The notes under the pieces were generated by a model that was not told the origin of the DNA, did not search any database, and saw only the letters and a program-made list of their open reading frames with translations. From an uncultured Pelagibacteraceae bacterium (GTDB lineage: Bacteria > Pseudomonadota > Alphaproteobacteria > Pelagibacterales > AG-422-B15), in contig CABYLU010000003.1 in assembly GCA_902519835.1 (NCBI GenBank), positions 24,916 to 88,915 on the forward strand: 64,000 bases of DNA, read 5' to 3'. A program made the position numbers and the translations under genes. Shown piece by piece: positions 32,265 through 60,734 of the stretch. The number at the start of each line of letters is the position of its first letter. Within the stretch, counting starts at the first letter, position 1.

Positions 32265-33105
32265 TTAATTACCAAGATATAAATTATTATCAATCCAATT
32301 ATTAATATTCTTAATATCTATGATTTTTGGATTAACGATATTTGAATTTTTACCAAAAAACTTATCCATATTAACTTCATTTAATTTTACGATATCAAGA
32401 AATTTTATTCTTTTCTTTATAAATAAATTAACCAAAATCTCATTCAAGTAATTAAATATATGAGGTGCTAAGCCGCCAATTTTCATTACTTGATAGCCTA
32501 GTTCGATTGCTGGAAACTTATCTTTATCTATTGGAATAAATTCAAGGTTCGAATAATTAGTCAATTCGATGCCACTATAAACATTAGAATATTTATTAAA
32601 TCCAAAAAATAAAGATGAAATAGGAACTCGCATATCTGGCTTGTTTAATAGTGCTGTACTAATACCATTTTCATAATTTATTAAGGCATGAACAATAGCT
32701 TGAGGGTGTATTATAGCATTAATTTCACTGTTTTTCAGATTAAATAAATATTTAGCTTCTATTATTTCAAGTGCTTTATTCATCATTGTAGCTGAGTCAA
32801 TTGAGATCTTGCTACCCATATTCCAAACTGGATGTTTGATTGCTTGCTGAGGTGTTACAGAGCTCAATTTCTTTTTTTTATAATACAAGAATGGTCCACC
32901 TGTTGCCGTGATGGTAATTGATTTATATTTTCCTAAATTTTGACTTAACAAATGATAAATTGAATTATGCTCTGAATCTAAAGGTATAATTTTAGTTTTA
33001 AATTTTTTTGATAAACTTATAAATTTCGTTCCAAGAGTAATTATGCATTCTTTATTCGCAATACCAACAATCTTCCCTGATTTTAATATCTTTAATAAGA
33101 GATCT
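32265..33105 (-). pseudogene. dxr: dxr (DXP reductoisomerase) fragment lacking the 5' NADPH-binding region
   Basis: The tracked ORF (32265..32951) starts at a TTG. In-frame homology continues upstream: ...ASLDLLLKILKSGKIVGIANKECIITLGTKFISLSKKFKTKIIPLDSEHNSIYHLLSQ... The N-terminal ~100 aa, including the GSTGSIG motif, are absent. The frame runs into the ftsK fragment and a stop near 33150. Confidence 0.85.
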
Positions 33106-33109
33106 AAAG

Positions 33110-34039
33110 ATGCTTGAATTATCAGTATATGAAGGTGTTCCTCATCTAATCACTCCAGTTGTGACTGATCCAAAAAAAGCAATTGTTGCACTTAAATGGG
33201 TCGTTAGAGAAATGGAGTCTCGATACAAAAAAATGTCCTTGTTAGGTGTTAGAAATATTGAAAACTATAATCAGAGAATGGTTGAAGCTATCAAAAAGTC
33301 GGAAAAGATAGTGAGATCAATCCCATCTGGAATAAACCCAGAAACTGGACAGCCAACAACTACACAAATTGAAATCGAAAATAAAAAGATGCCTTTTATT
33401 GTAGTTGTTGTTGATGAGATGGCTGACTTGATGATGGTTGCAGGAAAGGAAATTGAACACGCAATTCAAAGACTATCACAAATGGCAAGAGCAGCGGGAA
33501 TCCACTTAATTATGGCCACTCAAAGACCGAGTGTTGATGTGATTACAGGAACTATTAAAGCTAATTTTCCGAGCAGAATTAGTTTTCAAGTAAGCTCGAA
33601 GTTTGATAGTCGCACCATTCTTGGTGATGAGGGGGCAGAGAGACTGTTAGGCAAAGGCGATATGTTAATGATGACTGCTGGTGGAATTACATCGAGAATA
33701 CACGGTCCATTTATATCAGATCAAGAGATAGAGAATATTGTTCGTGCACTTCAAAAACAAGGTAATCCAGAATATGATGAAGAAATATTAAAAGAGGAAG
33801 AAATTGAGAATGATCTTGGAGTAGTCTCCGACGGTGATCACGATAATTTGCTACAGGACTCTCTGGATGTTATAAAAAAAGAAGGTAAAGCATCTACGAG
33901 CCTGTTACAAAGAAAACTACAGATTGGATATAATCGTGCAGCAAGAATAATGGATCAACTTGAGGAAAGTGGATACATAAGTGCTGCAAATCATGTAGGT
34001 AAAAGGGAAATTAATTTTGATAAATTTAATTCCTCATGA
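33110..34039 (+). pseudogene. ftsK: ftsK fragment: C-terminal part of the motor domain plus gamma domain only
   Basis: Begins at MLELSVYEGVPHLITPVVTDPKKA, which is mid-motor in full-length FtsK. Walker B VVVVDEMADLMM and the gamma wHTH LLQRKLQIGYNRAARIMDQLEESG are present. The TM domain, linker and Walker A are missing. The upstream in-frame sequence is non-homologous, with a stop at 33038-33040. Confidence 0.85.
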
Positions 34040-46257: not shown

Positions 46258-47045
46258 TAAGCTGCCTCCTGTTCTTTGTTTTGTCTTATGATCTCATCCG
46301 CTAATCTTAAATATGCCTGACTACCGGCAGCCTTTTGATCATAAATCAATGCCGGCATACCAAATGAAGGAGCTTCTGAAACTCTTACGTTACGGGGTAT
46401 GATGGTTTCATATACTTGTTGACTTAAATGTTTTTTAACATCGTCAGCAACTTGTGAAGAAAGTTTATTTCTTCCATCATACATTGTTAAAACTATCCCA
46501 TCGATTGTTAGATTTTGATTTAGATTTTGTTTAACCCTATCAATAGTTTTGATTAATTGACTAAGACCTTCTAAAGCAAAAAATTCACATTGAAGTGGAA
46601 CGATTATTGAATCTGCTGCGGTCATTGCCATGACAGTGAGAAGACTTAAAGCTGGCGGGCAATCAATAAAAACAAAACTAAAATCATTTAATGAGTTTTG
46701 GTCTGTCAAAATTTTTTTTAGAGTAAACGCTCTATCATTTACTTCAGCAAGTTCAGGTTCAATGCCTGACAGATCCACAGTAGATGGAATGATTTTTAAA
46801 TTTTCTATTTCAGTATTTTGAATTGCATCAAGTAAATTGCATTGAGACGCAAGAACTTCATAAATTGAATTATTTCTGTTTTGATAATCTATACCTAAAC
46901 CTGTACTAGCGTTTCCTTGAGGGTCGAGATCGATAATTAAAACTTTTTCCCCAATAGCTGCTAAGGCTGTGGATAAGTTTATTGCCGTTGTAGTTTTTCC
47001 CACTCCACCTTTCTGATTTGAGATAGCTATTATTTTATTTTTCAT
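46257..47045 (-). CDS. parA: Chromosome partitioning ATPase ParA
   Basis: Deviant Walker A NQKGGVGKTT. 262 aa. Confidence 0.95.
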   Translation of the reverse strand: MKNKIIAISNQKGGVGKTTTAINLSTALAAIGEKVLIIDLDPQGNASTGLGIDYQNRNNSIYEVLASQCNLLDAIQNTEIENLKIIPSTVDLSGIEPELAEVNDRAFTLKKILTDQNSLNDFSFVFIDCPPALSLLTVMAMTAADSIIVPLQCEFFALEGLSQLIKTIDRVKQNLNQNLTIDGIVLTMYDGRNKLSSQVADDVKKHLSQQVYETIIPRNVRVSEAPSFGMPALIYDQKAAGSQAYLRLADEIIRQNKEQEAA

Positions 47046-47668
47046 TAAGTTGTTGATTTTATTATATTTTTTAATTCCAAAATAAAAGAACCCTTTTCTC
47101 TCTCATTTTCATGCAATACATGATTAAAATCCCAATATTTAGTAGCTTGCACAATCTCCTCATCTATATGTACACCTTTATGCAGAAGCAATGTAGTGTT
47201 TTTTTTGCAAATATGATAACTAATTGATAATAAATGGTTTAATTGGCTGACTGCCCTTGCTAAAATGATATCGAATTTTTTATTTTCAATTTTTTCTACT
47301 TTAATGGGAATCACTTCAGTATTTTTGAGGTCTAATTTATCAATACATTTGTTAAGGAATGATACTCTTTTAGATCTATTCTCACATAAAAAAACCTTAT
47401 TTTTTGAGCCAAATATTAATGAAACTGGTATACCTGGAAGGCCAGCGCCACTTCCAATATCAATAATATCATTTCCATTACTAGTTATAAACTGAACTAA
47501 TCTGAGAGAATCATAGAAATGTCTTGTCCAGATAAAGTCTTTATCATTCTTTGATATTAAATTTTGGTCTTCTGCCAAAATTATTTCCCTGAATTCAGCC
47601 AATTTTTCAATTGTTTCACGTGAAACATTTGGCAAGAGCTCTTTTAGAGCATCAGGCGAATCAATCAT
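47045..47668 (-). CDS. rsmG: 16S rRNA (guanine527-N7)-methyltransferase RsmG (GidB)
   Basis: SAM motif DIGSGAGLPGIP. 207 aa. Sits in mnmG-rsmG-parA-parB order. Confidence 0.9.
   Translation of the reverse strand: MIDSPDALKELLPNVSRETIEKLAEFREIILAEDQNLISKNDKDFIWTRHFYDSLRLVQFITSNGNDIIDIGSGAGLPGIPVSLIFGSKNKVFLCENRSKRVSFLNKCIDKLDLKNTEVIPIKVEKIENKKFDIILARAVSQLNHLLSISYHICKKNTTLLLHKGVHIDEEIVQATKYWDFNHVLHENEREKGSFILELKNIIKSTT
47612..47627. promoter_or_regulatory. parS: parS centromere site (perfect consensus palindrome)
   Basis: TGTTTCACGTGAAACA is a perfect 16-bp palindrome identical to the consensus ParB-binding site. It lies in the 5' part of rsmG (codons ...NVSRETIE...), ~570 bp from parA. Confidence 0.85.
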
Positions 47669-49547: not shown

Positions 49548-49595
49548 GAATAAGTTAATTAAATTAACTTAGACTAATTGCAATCAATTATTTTG

Positions 49596-51208: not shown

Positions 51209-51238
51209 AAGGTCAAAAAATTATAATATCTTATATAT

Positions 51239-51694
51239 ATGAGCAGCTACGTTTTCAAATCAATCATTGGCAATATTGAGCTTGTCTCAAGTAAAAATAG
51301 AATAATTGCAGTTCATAGAACAAGGAAAAAGCCTAACAAAACAGAGGATAAGCTTTTAAAAAGATCTGCGCTTCAAATTAAAATGTATCTTGCGCGCAAA
51401 AGGCGATCCCTTAATTTTCCAACAAGACAAATGGGCACAAAATTTCAAAACCGTGTTTGGAATTATTTACGAAGGATACCTTATGGTAGAACAACTACTT
51501 ATGGAGACATTGCAAGGAAGTTGAGAACTTCGCCCCGAGCTGTTGGGGGAGCCTTAGGAAGAAATAATCTTATGATGACAGTTCCATGTCACAGAGTAGT
51601 TGGAAGTGACGGCAAACTCACAGGATTTACATCAGTGGGTGGGTTAAGTACCAAAAGAAATTTACTGAACATTGAACAAAAAACTAAAAAATAA
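51239..51694 (+). CDS. ogt: Methylated-DNA--protein-cysteine methyltransferase
   Basis: Active-site PCHRVV and the upstream YGDIA block. 151 aa. Confidence 0.85.
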   Translation: MSSYVFKSIIGNIELVSSKNRIIAVHRTRKKPNKTEDKLLKRSALQIKMYLARKRRSLNFPTRQMGTKFQNRVWNYLRRIPYGRTTTYGDIARKLRTSPRAVGGALGRNNLMMTVPCHRVVGSDGKLTGFTSVGGLSTKRNLLNIEQKTKK

Positions 51695-52211
51695 TCTTGA
51701 AAAGAAAATTAGGGTAATTCCTAATTTTCCAAAAAAAGGTATTCAGTTTCAAGATATAACTTCAATCACAGACAGTAAGCAGCTTTTTACCGAAGTTGTT
51801 AATGAAATTTCTAAATATTGTAAAAAAAATAAATTTACTAAAGTAGCTGGGATAGAAGCAAGAGGCTTCATCTTTGGATCAGCTGTTGCCTACAAGCTTG
51901 GCTTACCTTTTATTCCAATAAGAAAAAAAGGGAAACTTCCAGGGAAAATAGTCAAACAAAAATACAAGTTAGAGTATGGGATGGATGAAATCCAGGTACA
52001 CAAACACTCTATCACTTCTAGAGATAAGGTTTTGATTGTCGATGACTTAATTGCAACCGGTGGAACAGCTAACGCGGCCGCAAAGCTAATTTCAAAACTT
52101 GGAGTTAAAGAAATTGAATTTTTTATGATAATTGATTTATGGAACCTTGAAGGCTCAAAAAAGATTTCTAAAAGTTATCAGATAAGGTCGTTGATGAAGG
52201 CAGAAGGATAG
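51672..52211 (+). CDS. apt: Adenine phosphoribosyltransferase
   Basis: Motifs FPKKGIQFQDIT and the PRPP motif VLIVDDLIATGGTA. Only a TTG start (51672) is available upstream of the conserved N-terminus. Confidence 0.88.
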   Translation: MNKKLKNNLEKKIRVIPNFPKKGIQFQDITSITDSKQLFTEVVNEISKYCKKNKFTKVAGIEARGFIFGSAVAYKLGLPFIPIRKKGKLPGKIVKQKYKLEYGMDEIQVHKHSITSRDKVLIVDDLIATGGTANAAAKLISKLGVKEIEFFMIIDLWNLEGSKKISKSYQIRSLMKAEG

Positions 52212-53478: not shown

Positions 53479-53555
53479 TCGTTTAAATGATGATGATAAT
53501 GTGGAAAATAGTTTGGAAGCTGCTTTCTAACCGTAATCCTTAAATATAGCAAGTT

Positions 53556-53999
53556 TTATATTGGTTTAAAAATAACTAGAAATACGACAATTATCATCAA
53601 AACTGTTGGAAATTCATTGATAATTCTAAAAAAACGCTCTGATTTTGGCCTTTTATCCTCTTGAAACTCTCTTGTTAATTTTGAGAAATACCCATGAACT
53701 CCAGACATAAGAATCACAAATATGATTTTTAATTGAAGCCATAATTGAGACAGCGCATCAACACCCAAGTTTGATATCAACGCTAAACCAAACAACCATG
53801 AAAATATCATTGCTGGATTCATAATAATTTTAAGTAAACGTAATTCCATTAATTTAAAAGTCTCTGAAGAGTCAGACCCCACTTCTTTACTCCAATGATA
53901 AACAAATAATCTTGGCAAATATAAAAGGCCCGCCATCCAAGCTATAACGCTGATGATGTGCAAACTAAGAAATAAATTATATAAGAAAATTGAATTCAT
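53556..53999 (-). CDS. hemJ: Protoporphyrinogen IX oxidase HemJ
   Basis: 147-aa polytopic membrane protein with LHIISVIAWMAGLLYLPRLFVYH. Sits next to hemH and hemE. Confidence 0.8.
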   Translation of the reverse strand: MNSIFLYNLFLSLHIISVIAWMAGLLYLPRLFVYHWSKEVGSDSSETFKLMELRLLKIIMNPAMIFSWLFGLALISNLGVDALSQLWLQLKIIFVILMSGVHGYFSKLTREFQEDKRPKSERFFRIINEFPTVLMIIVVFLVIFKPI

Positions 54000-55015
54000 C
54001 TTAATTCTTGATCACATTGTTTAAACGTTGCTGGACATATCTTTTGCCTGATATTTCCACTCTCAACTTTCTCTGACTCACTGACTATTTCAGATAAGTT
54101 TTCTATAAATGTTTGATCAATATTTAAAGACTCAGATCTATAATAATGCTTACAGCCTAGTTCGCTTGCAAGTTCTTGGTACTCGATATCTAATTCAACA
54201 AGTGTTTCAGAGTGGTCCGAGACAAACGCTATTGGAACAATAACCAGGGCCCTATCCTCGCTAATTGCATTTTCTATTTCACTTGGTGTTGTTGGTTCAA
54301 GCCATTTAACTGGAGTAACTTTACTTTGGTAAGCCAAGACATGATCTTCATAACCATAAATGCCCTGCATGACCGCCTTAACTGTTTGCTCCACTTGCCA
54401 CTGATATGGATCACCTTTATTAATGATTGATACGGGTAAACTGTGAGCGGAAAACAGAACTCTTACTTTCTTATCTTTGACGTAGTTTATTTTGTCTTGG
54501 ATCAGTTTTTGATGGGCTTTAATTAATTTCGCGTCATATGGATAACAACAGGTGTATTTTGTTTTTGCATTTAATTCCTGGTTTTGGGCTTCTTTGAACC
54601 ACGCGTCCAGAGAAGATTTTGTTGTAGTTGTGGAATACTGTGGATATAGGGGCAGTAAAAATATTTTATCTGGATTATAGTCTTTAACTTTTGAAACGAC
54701 CTCGGCTGTCATTGGATGCCAATATCTCATGCAAACAAATACTTTGTTCTCAATGCCTTTGTTTTTTAACTCTTTCTGAAGGGCCTCTGCTTGGGAGTTA
54801 GTAATTTCAAGAATAGGTGATTTACCGCCTATTTCGGCATAAATTTCAGTAGCCTCTTTAGTGCGACGAGAAGATATAAGCCTTGCCAATAAATACCTGA
54901 AGGGATTTGGAAGTCTAAATATGTTGGGATCATTAAACAGATTAAATAAAAAAGGTTTTACGCTTTCTTGTTTGTCTGGTCCGCCCAAATTAAATAAAAC
55001 GACCGCTGTTTTCAT
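53996..55015 (-). CDS. hemH: Ferrochelatase
   Basis: Motifs LFNLGGP, PLYPQYS and FSAHSLP. 339 aa. Confidence 0.92.
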   Translation of the reverse strand: MKTAVVLFNLGGPDKQESVKPFLFNLFNDPNIFRLPNPFRYLLARLISSRRTKEATEIYAEIGGKSPILEITNSQAEALQKELKNKGIENKVFVCMRYWHPMTAEVVSKVKDYNPDKIFLLPLYPQYSTTTTKSSLDAWFKEAQNQELNAKTKYTCCYPYDAKLIKAHQKLIQDKINYVKDKKVRVLFSAHSLPVSIINKGDPYQWQVEQTVKAVMQGIYGYEDHVLAYQSKVTPVKWLEPTTPSEIENAISEDRALVIVPIAFVSDHSETLVELDIEYQELASELGCKHYYRSESLNIDQTFIENLSEIVSESEKVESGNIRQKICPATFKQCDQELR

Positions 55016-55998
55016 GTTGACCTTATCTGTAAGAGCATTTGCTCAACCTTCTCAATTGATGTCTCGGGTAAAACCCCATGTCCTAAATTAAAAATATGTG
55101 GTCTTTCTCTAAAAGCAAACAATATTTCTTCAATTTTCTGACCAAGATTTTGAGAGTCTTTTAATAGATGTTTAGGATCCAGATTTCCTTGAAAAACAAT
55201 TTTATCGTTTAGCTCGTTAATTTTATCTAAAGGAAAATTATAGTCTAAGGTAATACAGTCAAGCTTATCTATATTTGAATATTTTTTATAACATGCAAGA
55301 TTAGTGTTTCTAGGAAAGCCAATAATGGGAATGTCTTTTATTTTTTTTATACTCTCAATAATTTTTTTTGTAGGTTGAATACACCACTTGTTGAACTGTT
55401 CGTCATTCAAATGTTCTGCTGCTGATTCAAATATTTGAAAAGCATCAATCCCACAATCAATTTGCATTTCTGCGTGCTGAATGATGGCGTGTGTCATTTG
55501 CTCGATTAAGTTGTCTATTAGTGAAGTCTTTTTTACAATATCTTCGAATTTAAGATTTTGACGTTCATTCTTTTCATACAAACAATAAAACAGTGTCGTC
55601 CATGCTCCGCCAGCAAATCCTATTAAAGGGACATCTGTATTTTCTTTAATTTTTTTTATTCCTGTTGCAAGGGGTAGGGTTTTTTCAAGATTATAACTCA
55701 TGTTCTCATTGAACTTTATTACGGGGCCCTGCTCATCATTAAAACTAACACTTGAGCCCGCTGCAAAAGGGGTTATTAAAATATCTGAAAACACAATACA
55801 GGCATCCATACCGTATCTGTTTACTGGCTGCAGGGAAACTTCAAGTATTGCTGAGGGATCAAGAAACATATCCATAAGGTTTGCAAATTGTTTTCTGATA
55901 CTTATATATTCAGGCAAATGTCTTCCTGCCTGTCTCATTAACCAAACTGGTGTTGGGTTTGTTTTTTGACCCTTAAGTGTATCTATAAATATACTCAT
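55012..55998 (-). CDS. hemE: Uroporphyrinogen decarboxylase
   Basis: The conserved N-terminus PVWLMRQAGRHLPEY begins 18 aa after the ATG at 55998 (MSIFIDTLKGQK...). The tracked 63-codon upstream extension to 56187 has no homology and covers the AT-rich spacer. Confidence 0.9.
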   Translation of the reverse strand: MSIFIDTLKGQKTNPTPVWLMRQAGRHLPEYISIRKQFANLMDMFLDPSAILEVSLQPVNRYGMDACIVFSDILITPFAAGSSVSFNDEQGPVIKFNENMSYNLEKTLPLATGIKKIKENTDVPLIGFAGGAWTTLFYCLYEKNERQNLKFEDIVKKTSLIDNLIEQMTHAIIQHAEMQIDCGIDAFQIFESAAEHLNDEQFNKWCIQPTKKIIESIKKIKDIPIIGFPRNTNLACYKKYSNIDKLDCITLDYNFPLDKINELNDKIVFQGNLDPKHLLKDSQNLGQKIEEILFAFRERPHIFNLGHGVLPETSIEKVEQMLLQIRST

Positions 55999-56271
55999 TA
56001 TATTATATATATAATTGTAGTTGTTTATGTTCCTGTGGAATTGTGTATATATAAAAAGTCGCTTTTTGCCCACAATTCGATACACAGAACAATCGCTTTG
56101 AATTATATGCTTTTTAACCTTATACACCGACGTGGAAGAAAACCCCAATATCTCTAACAGGTGAACAAAGTTTGCAAAAATTCTCAATAAAGATAGAAAA
56201 ATAAGTTAAAAATTACAGATGGGTAAAGATAATAAAAGCACTCACAGGTCATAAGGGGTTTATACAGGTTT
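55999..56271. other. oriC: Candidate chromosomal replication origin (oriC) in the hemE-maf spacer
   Basis: This is the largest non-coding gap in the window (273 bp). It sits at the hemE-adjacent position where Caulobacter, Rickettsia and Sinorhizobium origins lie. Flanking genes diverge from it (45.4-56.0 kb all minus, 56.3-59.8 kb all plus). AT-rich runs at 55999-56018 and 56043-56056. Degenerate DnaA-box-like 9-mers: AATTCCACA (rc of 56034-56042), TTGCCCACA (56066-56074), TTATACACC (56120-56128), TTATACAGG (56260-56268). Confidence 0.5.
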
Positions 56272-56877
56272 ATGAACAGAGATATAATTTTGGCATCTAA
56301 AAGCGAAACAAGGATTAAATTATTACGTAACGCTGGCATAAGCTTTGAGTCCGTTGCTCATGGTGTAGATGAGGAAGAAGTCAAGATGTCGATGAGTAAA
56401 AATACTCCAGAAGAGATAGTGGTTAAACTTGCCGAGATGAAGGCCTTGAAGCCCTCCATGTCTAATAAAAGTGCATTTGTCATTGGATCTGACCAAGGTT
56501 TGGATCTGAATGGCGAGCTGATTAACAAGGCTGGGGATAGAAATGAAGCAAAAGAACAGTTGATGAAAATGAGCGGATCTATCCACACACTCATAACTGC
56601 CACAACAGTTGCTCAAGACAATAACATTATTTGGAAGTATGTAGACAGATCTAAAATGCATATGCGAAAGCTAAGCGAGGATCTGATAAAAGAGTATTTA
56701 AATAAAGTCGACGATAATATTCTTGGTCTTGTGGGTGTCTATGCAATTGAGGAGGAAGGAATTAAACTTTTTGAAAATATTGGGAGTGACCTTTTTTCAA
56801 TACAGGGCATATCATTAATTCAATTAACCCAGTTTCTTTGGGACAACAATCTTCTATTTGAAAACAATGGCACATAA
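56272..56877 (+). CDS. maf: Maf-like nucleoside triphosphate pyrophosphatase
   Basis: IILASKSETR N-terminus, VIGSDQ and AYAIEE-type (VYAIEEEG) blocks. 201 aa. Confidence 0.9.
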   Translation: MNRDIILASKSETRIKLLRNAGISFESVAHGVDEEEVKMSMSKNTPEEIVVKLAEMKALKPSMSNKSAFVIGSDQGLDLNGELINKAGDRNEAKEQLMKMSGSIHTLITATTVAQDNNIIWKYVDRSKMHMRKLSEDLIKEYLNKVDDNILGLVGVYAIEEEGIKLFENIGSDLFSIQGISLIQLTQFLWDNNLLFENNGT

Positions 56878-60667: not shown

Positions 60668-60734
60668 AATAAGTAAGTAATTGTTGAAAGTTTAGTTTAA
60701 ATACCTAAATAAGGACTCTATAATATTTGATTAA

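Follow-up and report, generated by a model that had tools for sequence, protein, structure and literature searches.

Where does chromosome replication begin in SAR11, the most abundant marine bacterial group? The question is raised here by a gap between two genes in a 64,000-nucleotide stretch of an uncultured Pelagibacteraceae genome (contig CABYLU010000003.1; hereafter the window, to which all positions refer), in which an earlier note, written from the letters of the window alone, had seen a candidate chromosomal origin of replication (oriC). The gap is the 273-bp spacer at 55999-56271, to which no strand is assigned, between hemE (start at 55998 on the minus strand, protein beginning MSIFIDTLKG...) and maf (start at 56272 on the plus strand). 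Our analysis upholds the proposal, and we consider it very likely that the hemE–maf spacer serves this SAR11 genome as its DnaA-dependent oriC, on the strength of a constant spacer length, a fixed spacing between anchor motifs, consensus DnaA boxes at aligned positions in other clades, the polarity with which a DNA unwinding element (DUE), triplets, and boxes follow one another, and a match to a profile hidden Markov model (HMM). Because the boxes of the source genome are degenerate, the call rests on other genomes.

The comparison took in the locus from 24 close genomes and nine further loci from deeply diverged SAR11 clades (hemE 49-80% identical). Across ten representatives, whose hemE proteins are 49-96% identical, the gap measured 273, 275, 275, 276, 276, 277, 280, 280, 281, and 281 bp. 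Overall identity of the spacer to the distant clades was only 47-56%, and short blocks nonetheless remained in register, with four anchors whose spacing shifts by no more than 2 bp: in nine representatives a CCTGT anchor was followed after 37-39 bp by CCCACAA, after 48-51 bp more by CTTAT, and after exactly 39 bp by CAGGTG(G/A)A. Taking TTATNCACA as the DnaA-box consensus, with TTATCCACA and TTATACACA (R2 type) as its specific forms, and flanking DNA as background, the nine spacers together held 22 matches with at most one mismatch, where 2.98 were expected, and four perfect boxes against 0.08 expected, at positions that align with the degenerate boxes of the source genome. An unbiased search for enriched 5-mers in five clades returned, after the words of the AT run, ACAGG, CACAG, GTGGA, CCACA, ACACA, and GTAGT, and TAGTA was enriched as well. 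Finally, a profile HMM trained solely on other clades' spacers, leaving out coding flanks and all members of the window clade, found 56004-56236 as its sole match in 624 kb (64.6 bits, E=3e-18), aligned collinearly. Of two control gaps treated likewise, the one upstream of rho gave zero cross-clade matches, and the fxsA–tim44 gap recovered its counterpart more weakly (E=1.4e-8) with a match that was partly coding.

The setting of the spacer is that of known alphaproteobacterial origins. By sequence the window is SAR11 DNA, its hemE protein being 85-96% identical to those of 24 uncultured Pelagibacteraceae single-cell contigs; its G+C content is about 30% and its genes are separated by very short intergenic gaps, among which the spacer is, as had been claimed, the longest non-coding stretch (the runners-up are 163 and 158 bp, and ORFs, i.e., open reading frames, are truncated at both window ends). 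It is bounded on the left by hemE, encoding uroporphyrinogen decarboxylase (55012-55998, minus strand, Pfam URO-D E=6.6e-76), and on the right by maf (56272-56877, plus strand, Pfam Maf E=4.8e-38). Pfam identities bore out every gene named in the earlier note's account of a hemE/maf origin neighbourhood, giving the order parAB-rsmG-mnmG-mnmE...rho-hemJ-hemH-hemE, then the spacer, then maf-aroE-coaE-dnaQ...secB, with ParB, Rho, a UPF0093/HemJ-like protein, ferrochelatase, and URO-D encoded on the minus strand, Maf, shikimate dehydrogenase, CoaE, and an RNase_T/DnaQ exonuclease on the plus strand, and SecB on the minus strand again. This hemE-linked arrangement, the location of the Caulobacter origin (Cori), was kept in all SAR11 clades sampled. 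Transcription was said to diverge from the spacer for about 10 kb leftward and 3.5 kb rightward; the rightward figure stands, while two plus-strand genes at 51239-52211 break the leftward run of minus-strand genes and leave 3.8 kb of uninterrupted divergence on that side. The perfect parS reported nearby is there as well (TGTTTCACGTGAAACA, 47612-47627, no strand assigned), inside rsmG and by parAB, 8.4 kb from the spacer, and is the sole match in the window when up to two mismatches are allowed (0.03 expected). The dnaA gene is absent from the 64-kb window.

Such a location has precedents. Origins adjacent to hemE are established in Caulobacter and predicted for Rickettsiales, including Rickettsia, Wolbachia, Ehrlichia, and Anaplasma (Brassinga et al. 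2001, as relayed by Ioannidis et al. 2007, PMC1914354), and both hemE and maf are among the origin indicator genes of Ori-Finder (PMC3794950). For SAR11 itself, coverage-based work has described a single origin and terminus (PMC9589681), and our literature search turned up no open paper on its oriC. Both the type of element and the place where it lies are predictable from existing knowledge and tools, and the surprise is modest.

Consider first the hemE-proximal end of the spacer in the source genome. An AT-only run at 55984-56016 (no strand assigned), which overlaps the hemE start codon, is the proposed DUE; its portion at 55997-56016, a pure-A/T stretch lying 17 bp from the first box, is the one strong single-genome feature. 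By nearest-neighbour free energy over the 64 kb, 55999-56013 ties as the least stable 15-mer, 55997-56016 is the second least stable 20-mer, and the 30-mer from about 55984-55986 ranks second among non-overlapping windows. The earlier note had placed AT-rich runs close to this one and to a second at 56046-56057, and both were recovered as pure A/T. Within the first run the block ATATATATA is invariant across clades. It is followed on the plus strand by a DnaA-trio-like trinucleotide array, TTG TAG TTG TTT ATG (56015-56029), invariant in 25 close genomes, and by a short G/C-containing spacer, TTCC (56030-56033), which reads GGCC or TACC in other clades and to which the variable positions of the left 60 bp among close genomes are nearly confined (CTCC, TCCC, TCTT). 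Next come two DnaA-box-like sites on the minus strand. The triplet-proximal one, AATTCCACA (56034-56042, 6/9; TGTGGAATT on the plus strand), has a CCTGTG core that is kept in nearly all clades at +30 to +36 from hemE (CCTGTT in L027 and L035) and is oriented with TGTGnATAA on the plus strand, 3' of the AT run, as is E. coli R1. The other, ATATACACA (56042-56050, one mismatch to TTATNCACA; TGTGTATAT on the plus strand), is identical in L025, L034, and L032 and lies in a segment, 56040-56059, with a nucleotide diversity (pi) of 0.000 in 25 genomes. The aligned arrays of other clades, 15-17 nt long, read TTG TAG TAG TAG TTG (L029, L033, L036), TAG TAG TAG TAG ATG (L027, L035), and TAG TAT TAG TTT ATG (L025, L034). 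A further locus, L037, sits in the middle (651592-672125) of a 1.38-Mb long-read metagenome contig from ENA that is SAR11-like in size; its spacer retains the AT run, a TAG TAG TAG TTG TTG array, and box-like sites, and its hemE, maf, hemH, and mnmG are each split among many frameshifts, which points to uncorrected long-read errors.

Further box-like sites extend across the rest of the spacer, all on the plus strand unless stated otherwise. TTGCCCACA (56066-56074, 7/9) lies at the CCCACAA anchor, whose distance from CCTGT holds in all clades, and CGATACACA (56078-56086, 7/9 to TTATACACA) is kept in the window clade and, as CAATACACA, in L025. TTATACACC (56120-56128) has one mismatch to TTATNCACA and varies among 25 close genomes mainly at position 5 (A, C, T, or G), i.e., at the N of the consensus; aligned with it are a perfect TTATACACA in L027 and L035, TTATCCATA in L029, L033, and L036, and TTGTTCACA in L025. 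In the central ACAGGTGAACAA (56157-56168, minus strand), which lies at the CAGGTG(G/A)A anchor, a reverse box, TTGTTCACC (56160), abuts a weak forward box, and the sites aligned with it are TTATCCACC in L029, L033, and L036 and, in L025 and L034, TTATCCACA, a perfect consensus box, directly abutting GGTGGATGA. Toward maf, the weak box GCACTCACAGGT (56238-56249) varies among close genomes at positions 1-5 (GTACACACA, GTACCCACA, ATAACCACA) around an invariant CACA core, with ATATCCACA as its aligned site in L025 and L034, and TTATACAGGT (56260-56269, 7/9), by the maf start, overlaps promoter-like maf matches, so that it is uncertain whether it is a weak box or a piece of the maf promoter or ribosome-binding-site region.

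Counted in the source genome, these sites amount to a box cluster of the kind expected of a DnaA-dependent oriC, and taken alone the signal is weak. The degenerate 9-mers noticed earlier do exist: three matches of 7/9 to TTATCCACA (1.16 expected per 273 bp) and two of 8/9 to TTATACACA (0.08 expected), namely ATATACACA at 56042 on the minus strand and TTATACACC at 56120 on the plus strand. With up to two mismatches to TTATNCACA the spacer holds 14 matches against 4.4 expected (P=2e-4), and among sliding 273-bp windows it is top or tied for loose box matches. The hexamer ACAGGT occurs three times, as had been said, at 56157, 56244, and 56264, always on the plus strand, against 0.055 expected (P about 3e-5); judging from the 5-mer enrichment, the recurrence mostly reflects the 3' ends of box-like sites with GG after them. 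Elsewhere, the only two perfect TTATNCACA matches of the window, TTATCCACA and TTATTCACA, lie in coding sequence, at 46968 (minus strand, parA) and 50542 (plus strand, mnmE); both are isolated, and their distances to the spacer are 9 kb and 5.5 kb.

Several of these observations weigh against an origin and have to be set beside those in its favor. The source spacer has zero consensus DnaA boxes, its best ones carrying one to three mismatches, and at the stricter threshold of at most one mismatch to TTATNCACA the enrichment in this one genome is marginal (2 vs 0.37 expected, P=0.05). Nor is the box density unique when a 273-bp window is slid along the sequence, as matches to the CACA core are more numerous in a coding region near 61.5 kb. 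The two proximal boxes at 56034 and 56042 share one base and so have an 8-bp period, unlike boxes 6 and 7 of B. subtilis, and in the window clade only one of the five triplets has a central A, which falls short of the published (.A.)x3 pattern. Within-clade conservation is likewise not specific to the spacer. The spacer has a pi of 0.073 as a whole and of 0.013-0.028 in its left 92 bp (55999-56090), which are less diverse than second codon positions, compared with 0.20-0.23 where hemE and maf have their third codon positions; nearby short gaps have values of 0.024-0.072. The control gaps being equally conserved, we gave low diversity inside the clade less weight as a sign of an origin in particular and relied on the cross-clade tests instead. 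As an observation in its own right, the gaps at 49548-49595, 51209-51238, 53479-53555, and 60668-60734 were 3-8 times less diverse than the third codon positions of their neighbours (0.12-0.35; 25 genomes), and essentially all remaining SAR11 intergenic DNA appears to be under constraint.

Base-composition skew also gives the origin no help. A cumulative GC-skew check had been suggested, and run on the window the raw curve does have a local minimum at 56 kb, along with another at 33 kb. However, the 68 called genes have coding-strand skews of about +0.12 (GC) and +0.11 (AT) regardless of direction, and when genes were split by strand and their GC and AT skews at third codon positions (GC3 and AT3) compared, no replication-linked component was detectable in the window (r about 0.007, P=0.77). 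The 56-kb minimum reflects only divergent transcription, since the coding-strand GC3 and AT3 skews do not differ between plus- and minus-strand genes. The whole signal is a coding-strand purine excess, GC skew was dropped as origin evidence either way, and skew-based origin finding would be unreliable for the source genome.

How does the spacer compare with origins that are better known? To Cori and the Rickettsiales origins it is alike in being intergenic and directly upstream of hemE, in its conserved neighbourhood, in its degenerate boxes, and in an AT-rich stretch on the hemE side, whereas its right boundary is maf rather than a DUF299/COG1806 or CBS-domain gene, it spans 273 bp where theirs exceed 400 bp, and the source spacer lacks TTAA-N7-TTAA CtrA, integration host factor (IHF) consensus, and GANTC sites. 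It resembles E. coli oriC (245 bp minimal) in size, in a DUE at one edge followed by a TGTGnATAA box like R1, and in boxes of both orientations, one of them of the TTATACACA (R2) type. The E. coli order is 5'-DUE...TGTGGATAA(R1)-3', which matches the polarity of the source module. The spacer differs from E. coli oriC in lacking 13-mer repeats, GATC/SeqA sites, and consensus sites for IHF and Fis, in its flanking genes (mnmG is 6.5 kb away here), and in that all source boxes are non-consensus.

Another parallel is with the basal unwinding system (BUS) of Bacillus subtilis and many other bacteria (Richardson 2016/2019; Pelliciari 2021, PMC8287927), which likewise consists of boxes, a short G/C spacer, a trinucleotide array, and an AT-rich region, the triplets lying 5' of the boxes on their strand. 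DnaA oligomers require a 5' tail that carries DnaA-trios beside the boxes (PMC8287927), and the first trio is followed 3' by G19 and G20 (PMC10721633); on the plus strand of the spacer the AT run, triplets, TTCC, and boxes succeed one another in agreement with both. The published rule for a BUS asks for a box with at most two mismatches within 16 bp of the array, a second box with at most four mismatches, and at least three consecutive NAN triplets (3'-NAN-5', consensus 3'-GAT-5'). Here, the better box, ATATACACA (two mismatches to TTATCCACA), is 12 bp from the triplets, inside the published 10-13 bp peak, and AATTCCACA (three mismatches) lies in between. Runs of at least three NAN triplets are present in sister clades, as TAG x4 in L027 and L035, TAG x3 in L029, L033, L036, and L037, and TAG TAT TAG in L025 and L034. 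Differences are the triplet content of the window clade and the 1-bp overlap of the two proximal boxes of the source. The hemE-proximal order of AT run, triplets, G/C, and boxes is that of a BUS in the correct polarity, and the element as a whole is very probably a compact alphaproteobacterial origin of known type, in which CtrA, CcrM, and IHF sites are missing and a BUS-like module is present.

The missing regulatory sites need not trouble this interpretation. That the spacer holds no TTAA-N7-TTAA CtrA site, a departure from the Caulobacter model that the earlier note had already recorded, was confirmed and extended, with zero strict matches in nine clade representatives; the loose form TTWW-N7-TTWW matched six times, where AT-rich DNA should yield about 2.5 by chance, and is uninformative. 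The same nine representatives contained no IHF consensus (WATCAANNNNTTR) and no GATC, and GANTC, which the source spacer lacks, occurred in only two of the nine, as a single palindromic site. Pelagibacter has no ctrA orthologue and was grouped among the bacteria without CcrM and GcrA (Brilli et al., PMC2877005). Since ctrA is absent from Pelagibacter, missing CtrA and CcrM sites are expected rather than a problem, and a spacer with no CtrA, CcrM (GANTC), Dam/SeqA (GATC), or IHF sites agrees with SAR11 having lost those regulators.

A stronger version of this idea, which we regard as unlikely, is that the alphaproteobacterial origin of SAR11 may be a minimal one that does without regulators and has a shifted recognition code. 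The double-strand box appears to be extended to tTATnCACAGG, which would account for the recurring ACAGGT, and the single-strand element of the window clade has T-rich TTG/TTT triplets where the canonical trios are TAG, invariantly across 25 genomes. If true, the shifted code would imply a DnaA specificity that has co-evolved with it, or a second, ACAGG-binding origin factor in place of CtrA-type control.

Could the spacer instead be merely a divergent promoter/operator for hemE-hemH-hemJ and maf-aroE-coaE-dnaQ, its motifs being sites for RNA polymerase and for a transcription factor (possibly DnaA in a regulatory role)? Both flanking operons do need promoters inside the hemE–maf gap, TTAAAA-16-GATAAT at 56206-56233 is a plausible maf promoter, SAR11 intergenic DNA is constrained in general as the nearby short gaps attest, and the fxsA–tim44 control shows that another gap can be recovered across clades, albeit with a partly coding match. 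However, other divergent gaps in the window make do with 49-163 bp, the rho-upstream control gap has no cross-clade homology, and promoter-like matches in the spacer are unenriched (4 vs 2.6 expected), with zero on the hemE strand. Promoters would also leave unexplained at least six CACA-core motifs with spacing fixed to the base pair over about 250 bp, the triplet array with its AT run, and the synteny with proven origins. We consider it improbable that the spacer is a promoter region and nothing more. The Caulobacter Cori contains hemE promoters, so promoter and origin functions are compatible.

The low diversity of the left half (pi 0.013-0.028 over 55999-56090 within the clade) and its position immediately 5' of hemE might also suggest a small structured RNA or a cis-regulatory hemE leader, which we judge highly improbable: no Rfam family scored above threshold, whether gathering scores or E-values were applied (the best reached 18 bits against a gathering score of 112 bits), minimum-free-energy folds of the two strands were no stabler than dinucleotide shuffles (z +0.70 and +0.23), the spacer has no terminator-like site, and cross-clade conservation lies in short asymmetric motifs, not paired segments. 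Least credible of all, to the point of near exclusion, is that the gap is coding, either as an N-terminal extension of hemE from a TTG at 56187 or as a small ORF. In the source genome the hemE frame is indeed open for 69 codons upstream of its ATG, an extension that the earlier note had dismissed as spurious, rightly so, as the same frame is closed by stops after 2-27 codons in relatives, including same-clade L020 (20) and L032 (26); moreover, the Pfam URO-D match begins at residue 4 of the short hemE form, and variation in the spacer has no codon periodicity.

Returning to the hemE–maf spacer as a DnaA-dependent oriC, its anatomy, conservation, and synteny let us infer where DnaA would bind, where the duplex would open, and that replication would fire from here. 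DnaA would bind about seven weak-to-moderate TTATNCACA-type boxes at fixed positions over the 273 bp, with the closely spaced pair at 56034-56050 facing the hemE-proximal end. From this pair a DnaA oligomer may extend across the G/C spacer onto the T(A/T)G array at 56015-56029 and open the adjoining A/T-only run (~55984-56016), where the helicase would be loaded. Forks would then exit co-directionally with the divergent hemE-hemH-hemJ-rho and maf-aroE-coaE-dnaQ operons, and ParB bound at parS, 8.4 kb off, would segregate the origin region.

Three other features of the window deserve mention. At 32265-34039, the essential genes dxr (minus strand) and ftsK (plus strand) meet head-to-head, each without its 5' part, at a junction at ~33100-33115 (near 33105): dxr keeps only its DXP_redisom_C and DXPR_C domains, with about 100 N-terminal residues gone, and ftsK starts only where residue 444 of a 753-aa protein would be, while relatives (82-86% identical) have a full-length FtsK of 753-760 aa with another upstream gene and the same downstream genes (lolA, glnA-like). 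This is probably an assembly chimera and, if so, positions 1-33.1 kb of the window may not be contiguous with the origin region. In the heme operon, the slot after hemH (53556-53999) is occupied by a UPF0093 gene (HemJ-type protoporphyrinogen oxidase family) in the window clade, L036, and L037, and by a Flavodoxin_5/HemG-like gene in the remaining SAR11 clades (the ranges listed are L026-L031 and L033-L035 vs L032, L036, and L037), a HemJ/HemG swap at a fixed position that looks like non-orthologous replacement. Finally, positions 1-1002 have 21% G+C and hold the 5' part of a minus-strand ORF that crosses the window edge (MNYLVLRNDGIGDLIV...); by eye its product resembles a family 9 glycosyltransferase (heptosyltransferase).

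An origin of about 275 bp with mapped elements would give SAR11 a fixed anchor for coverage-based estimates of growth from metagenomes (peak-to-trough ratio), a defined fragment for DnaA biochemistry, and a candidate replicator for SAR11 vectors. It would also be an instance, provided by nature, of an alphaproteobacterial origin from which CtrA, CcrM, and IHF control has been stripped away.

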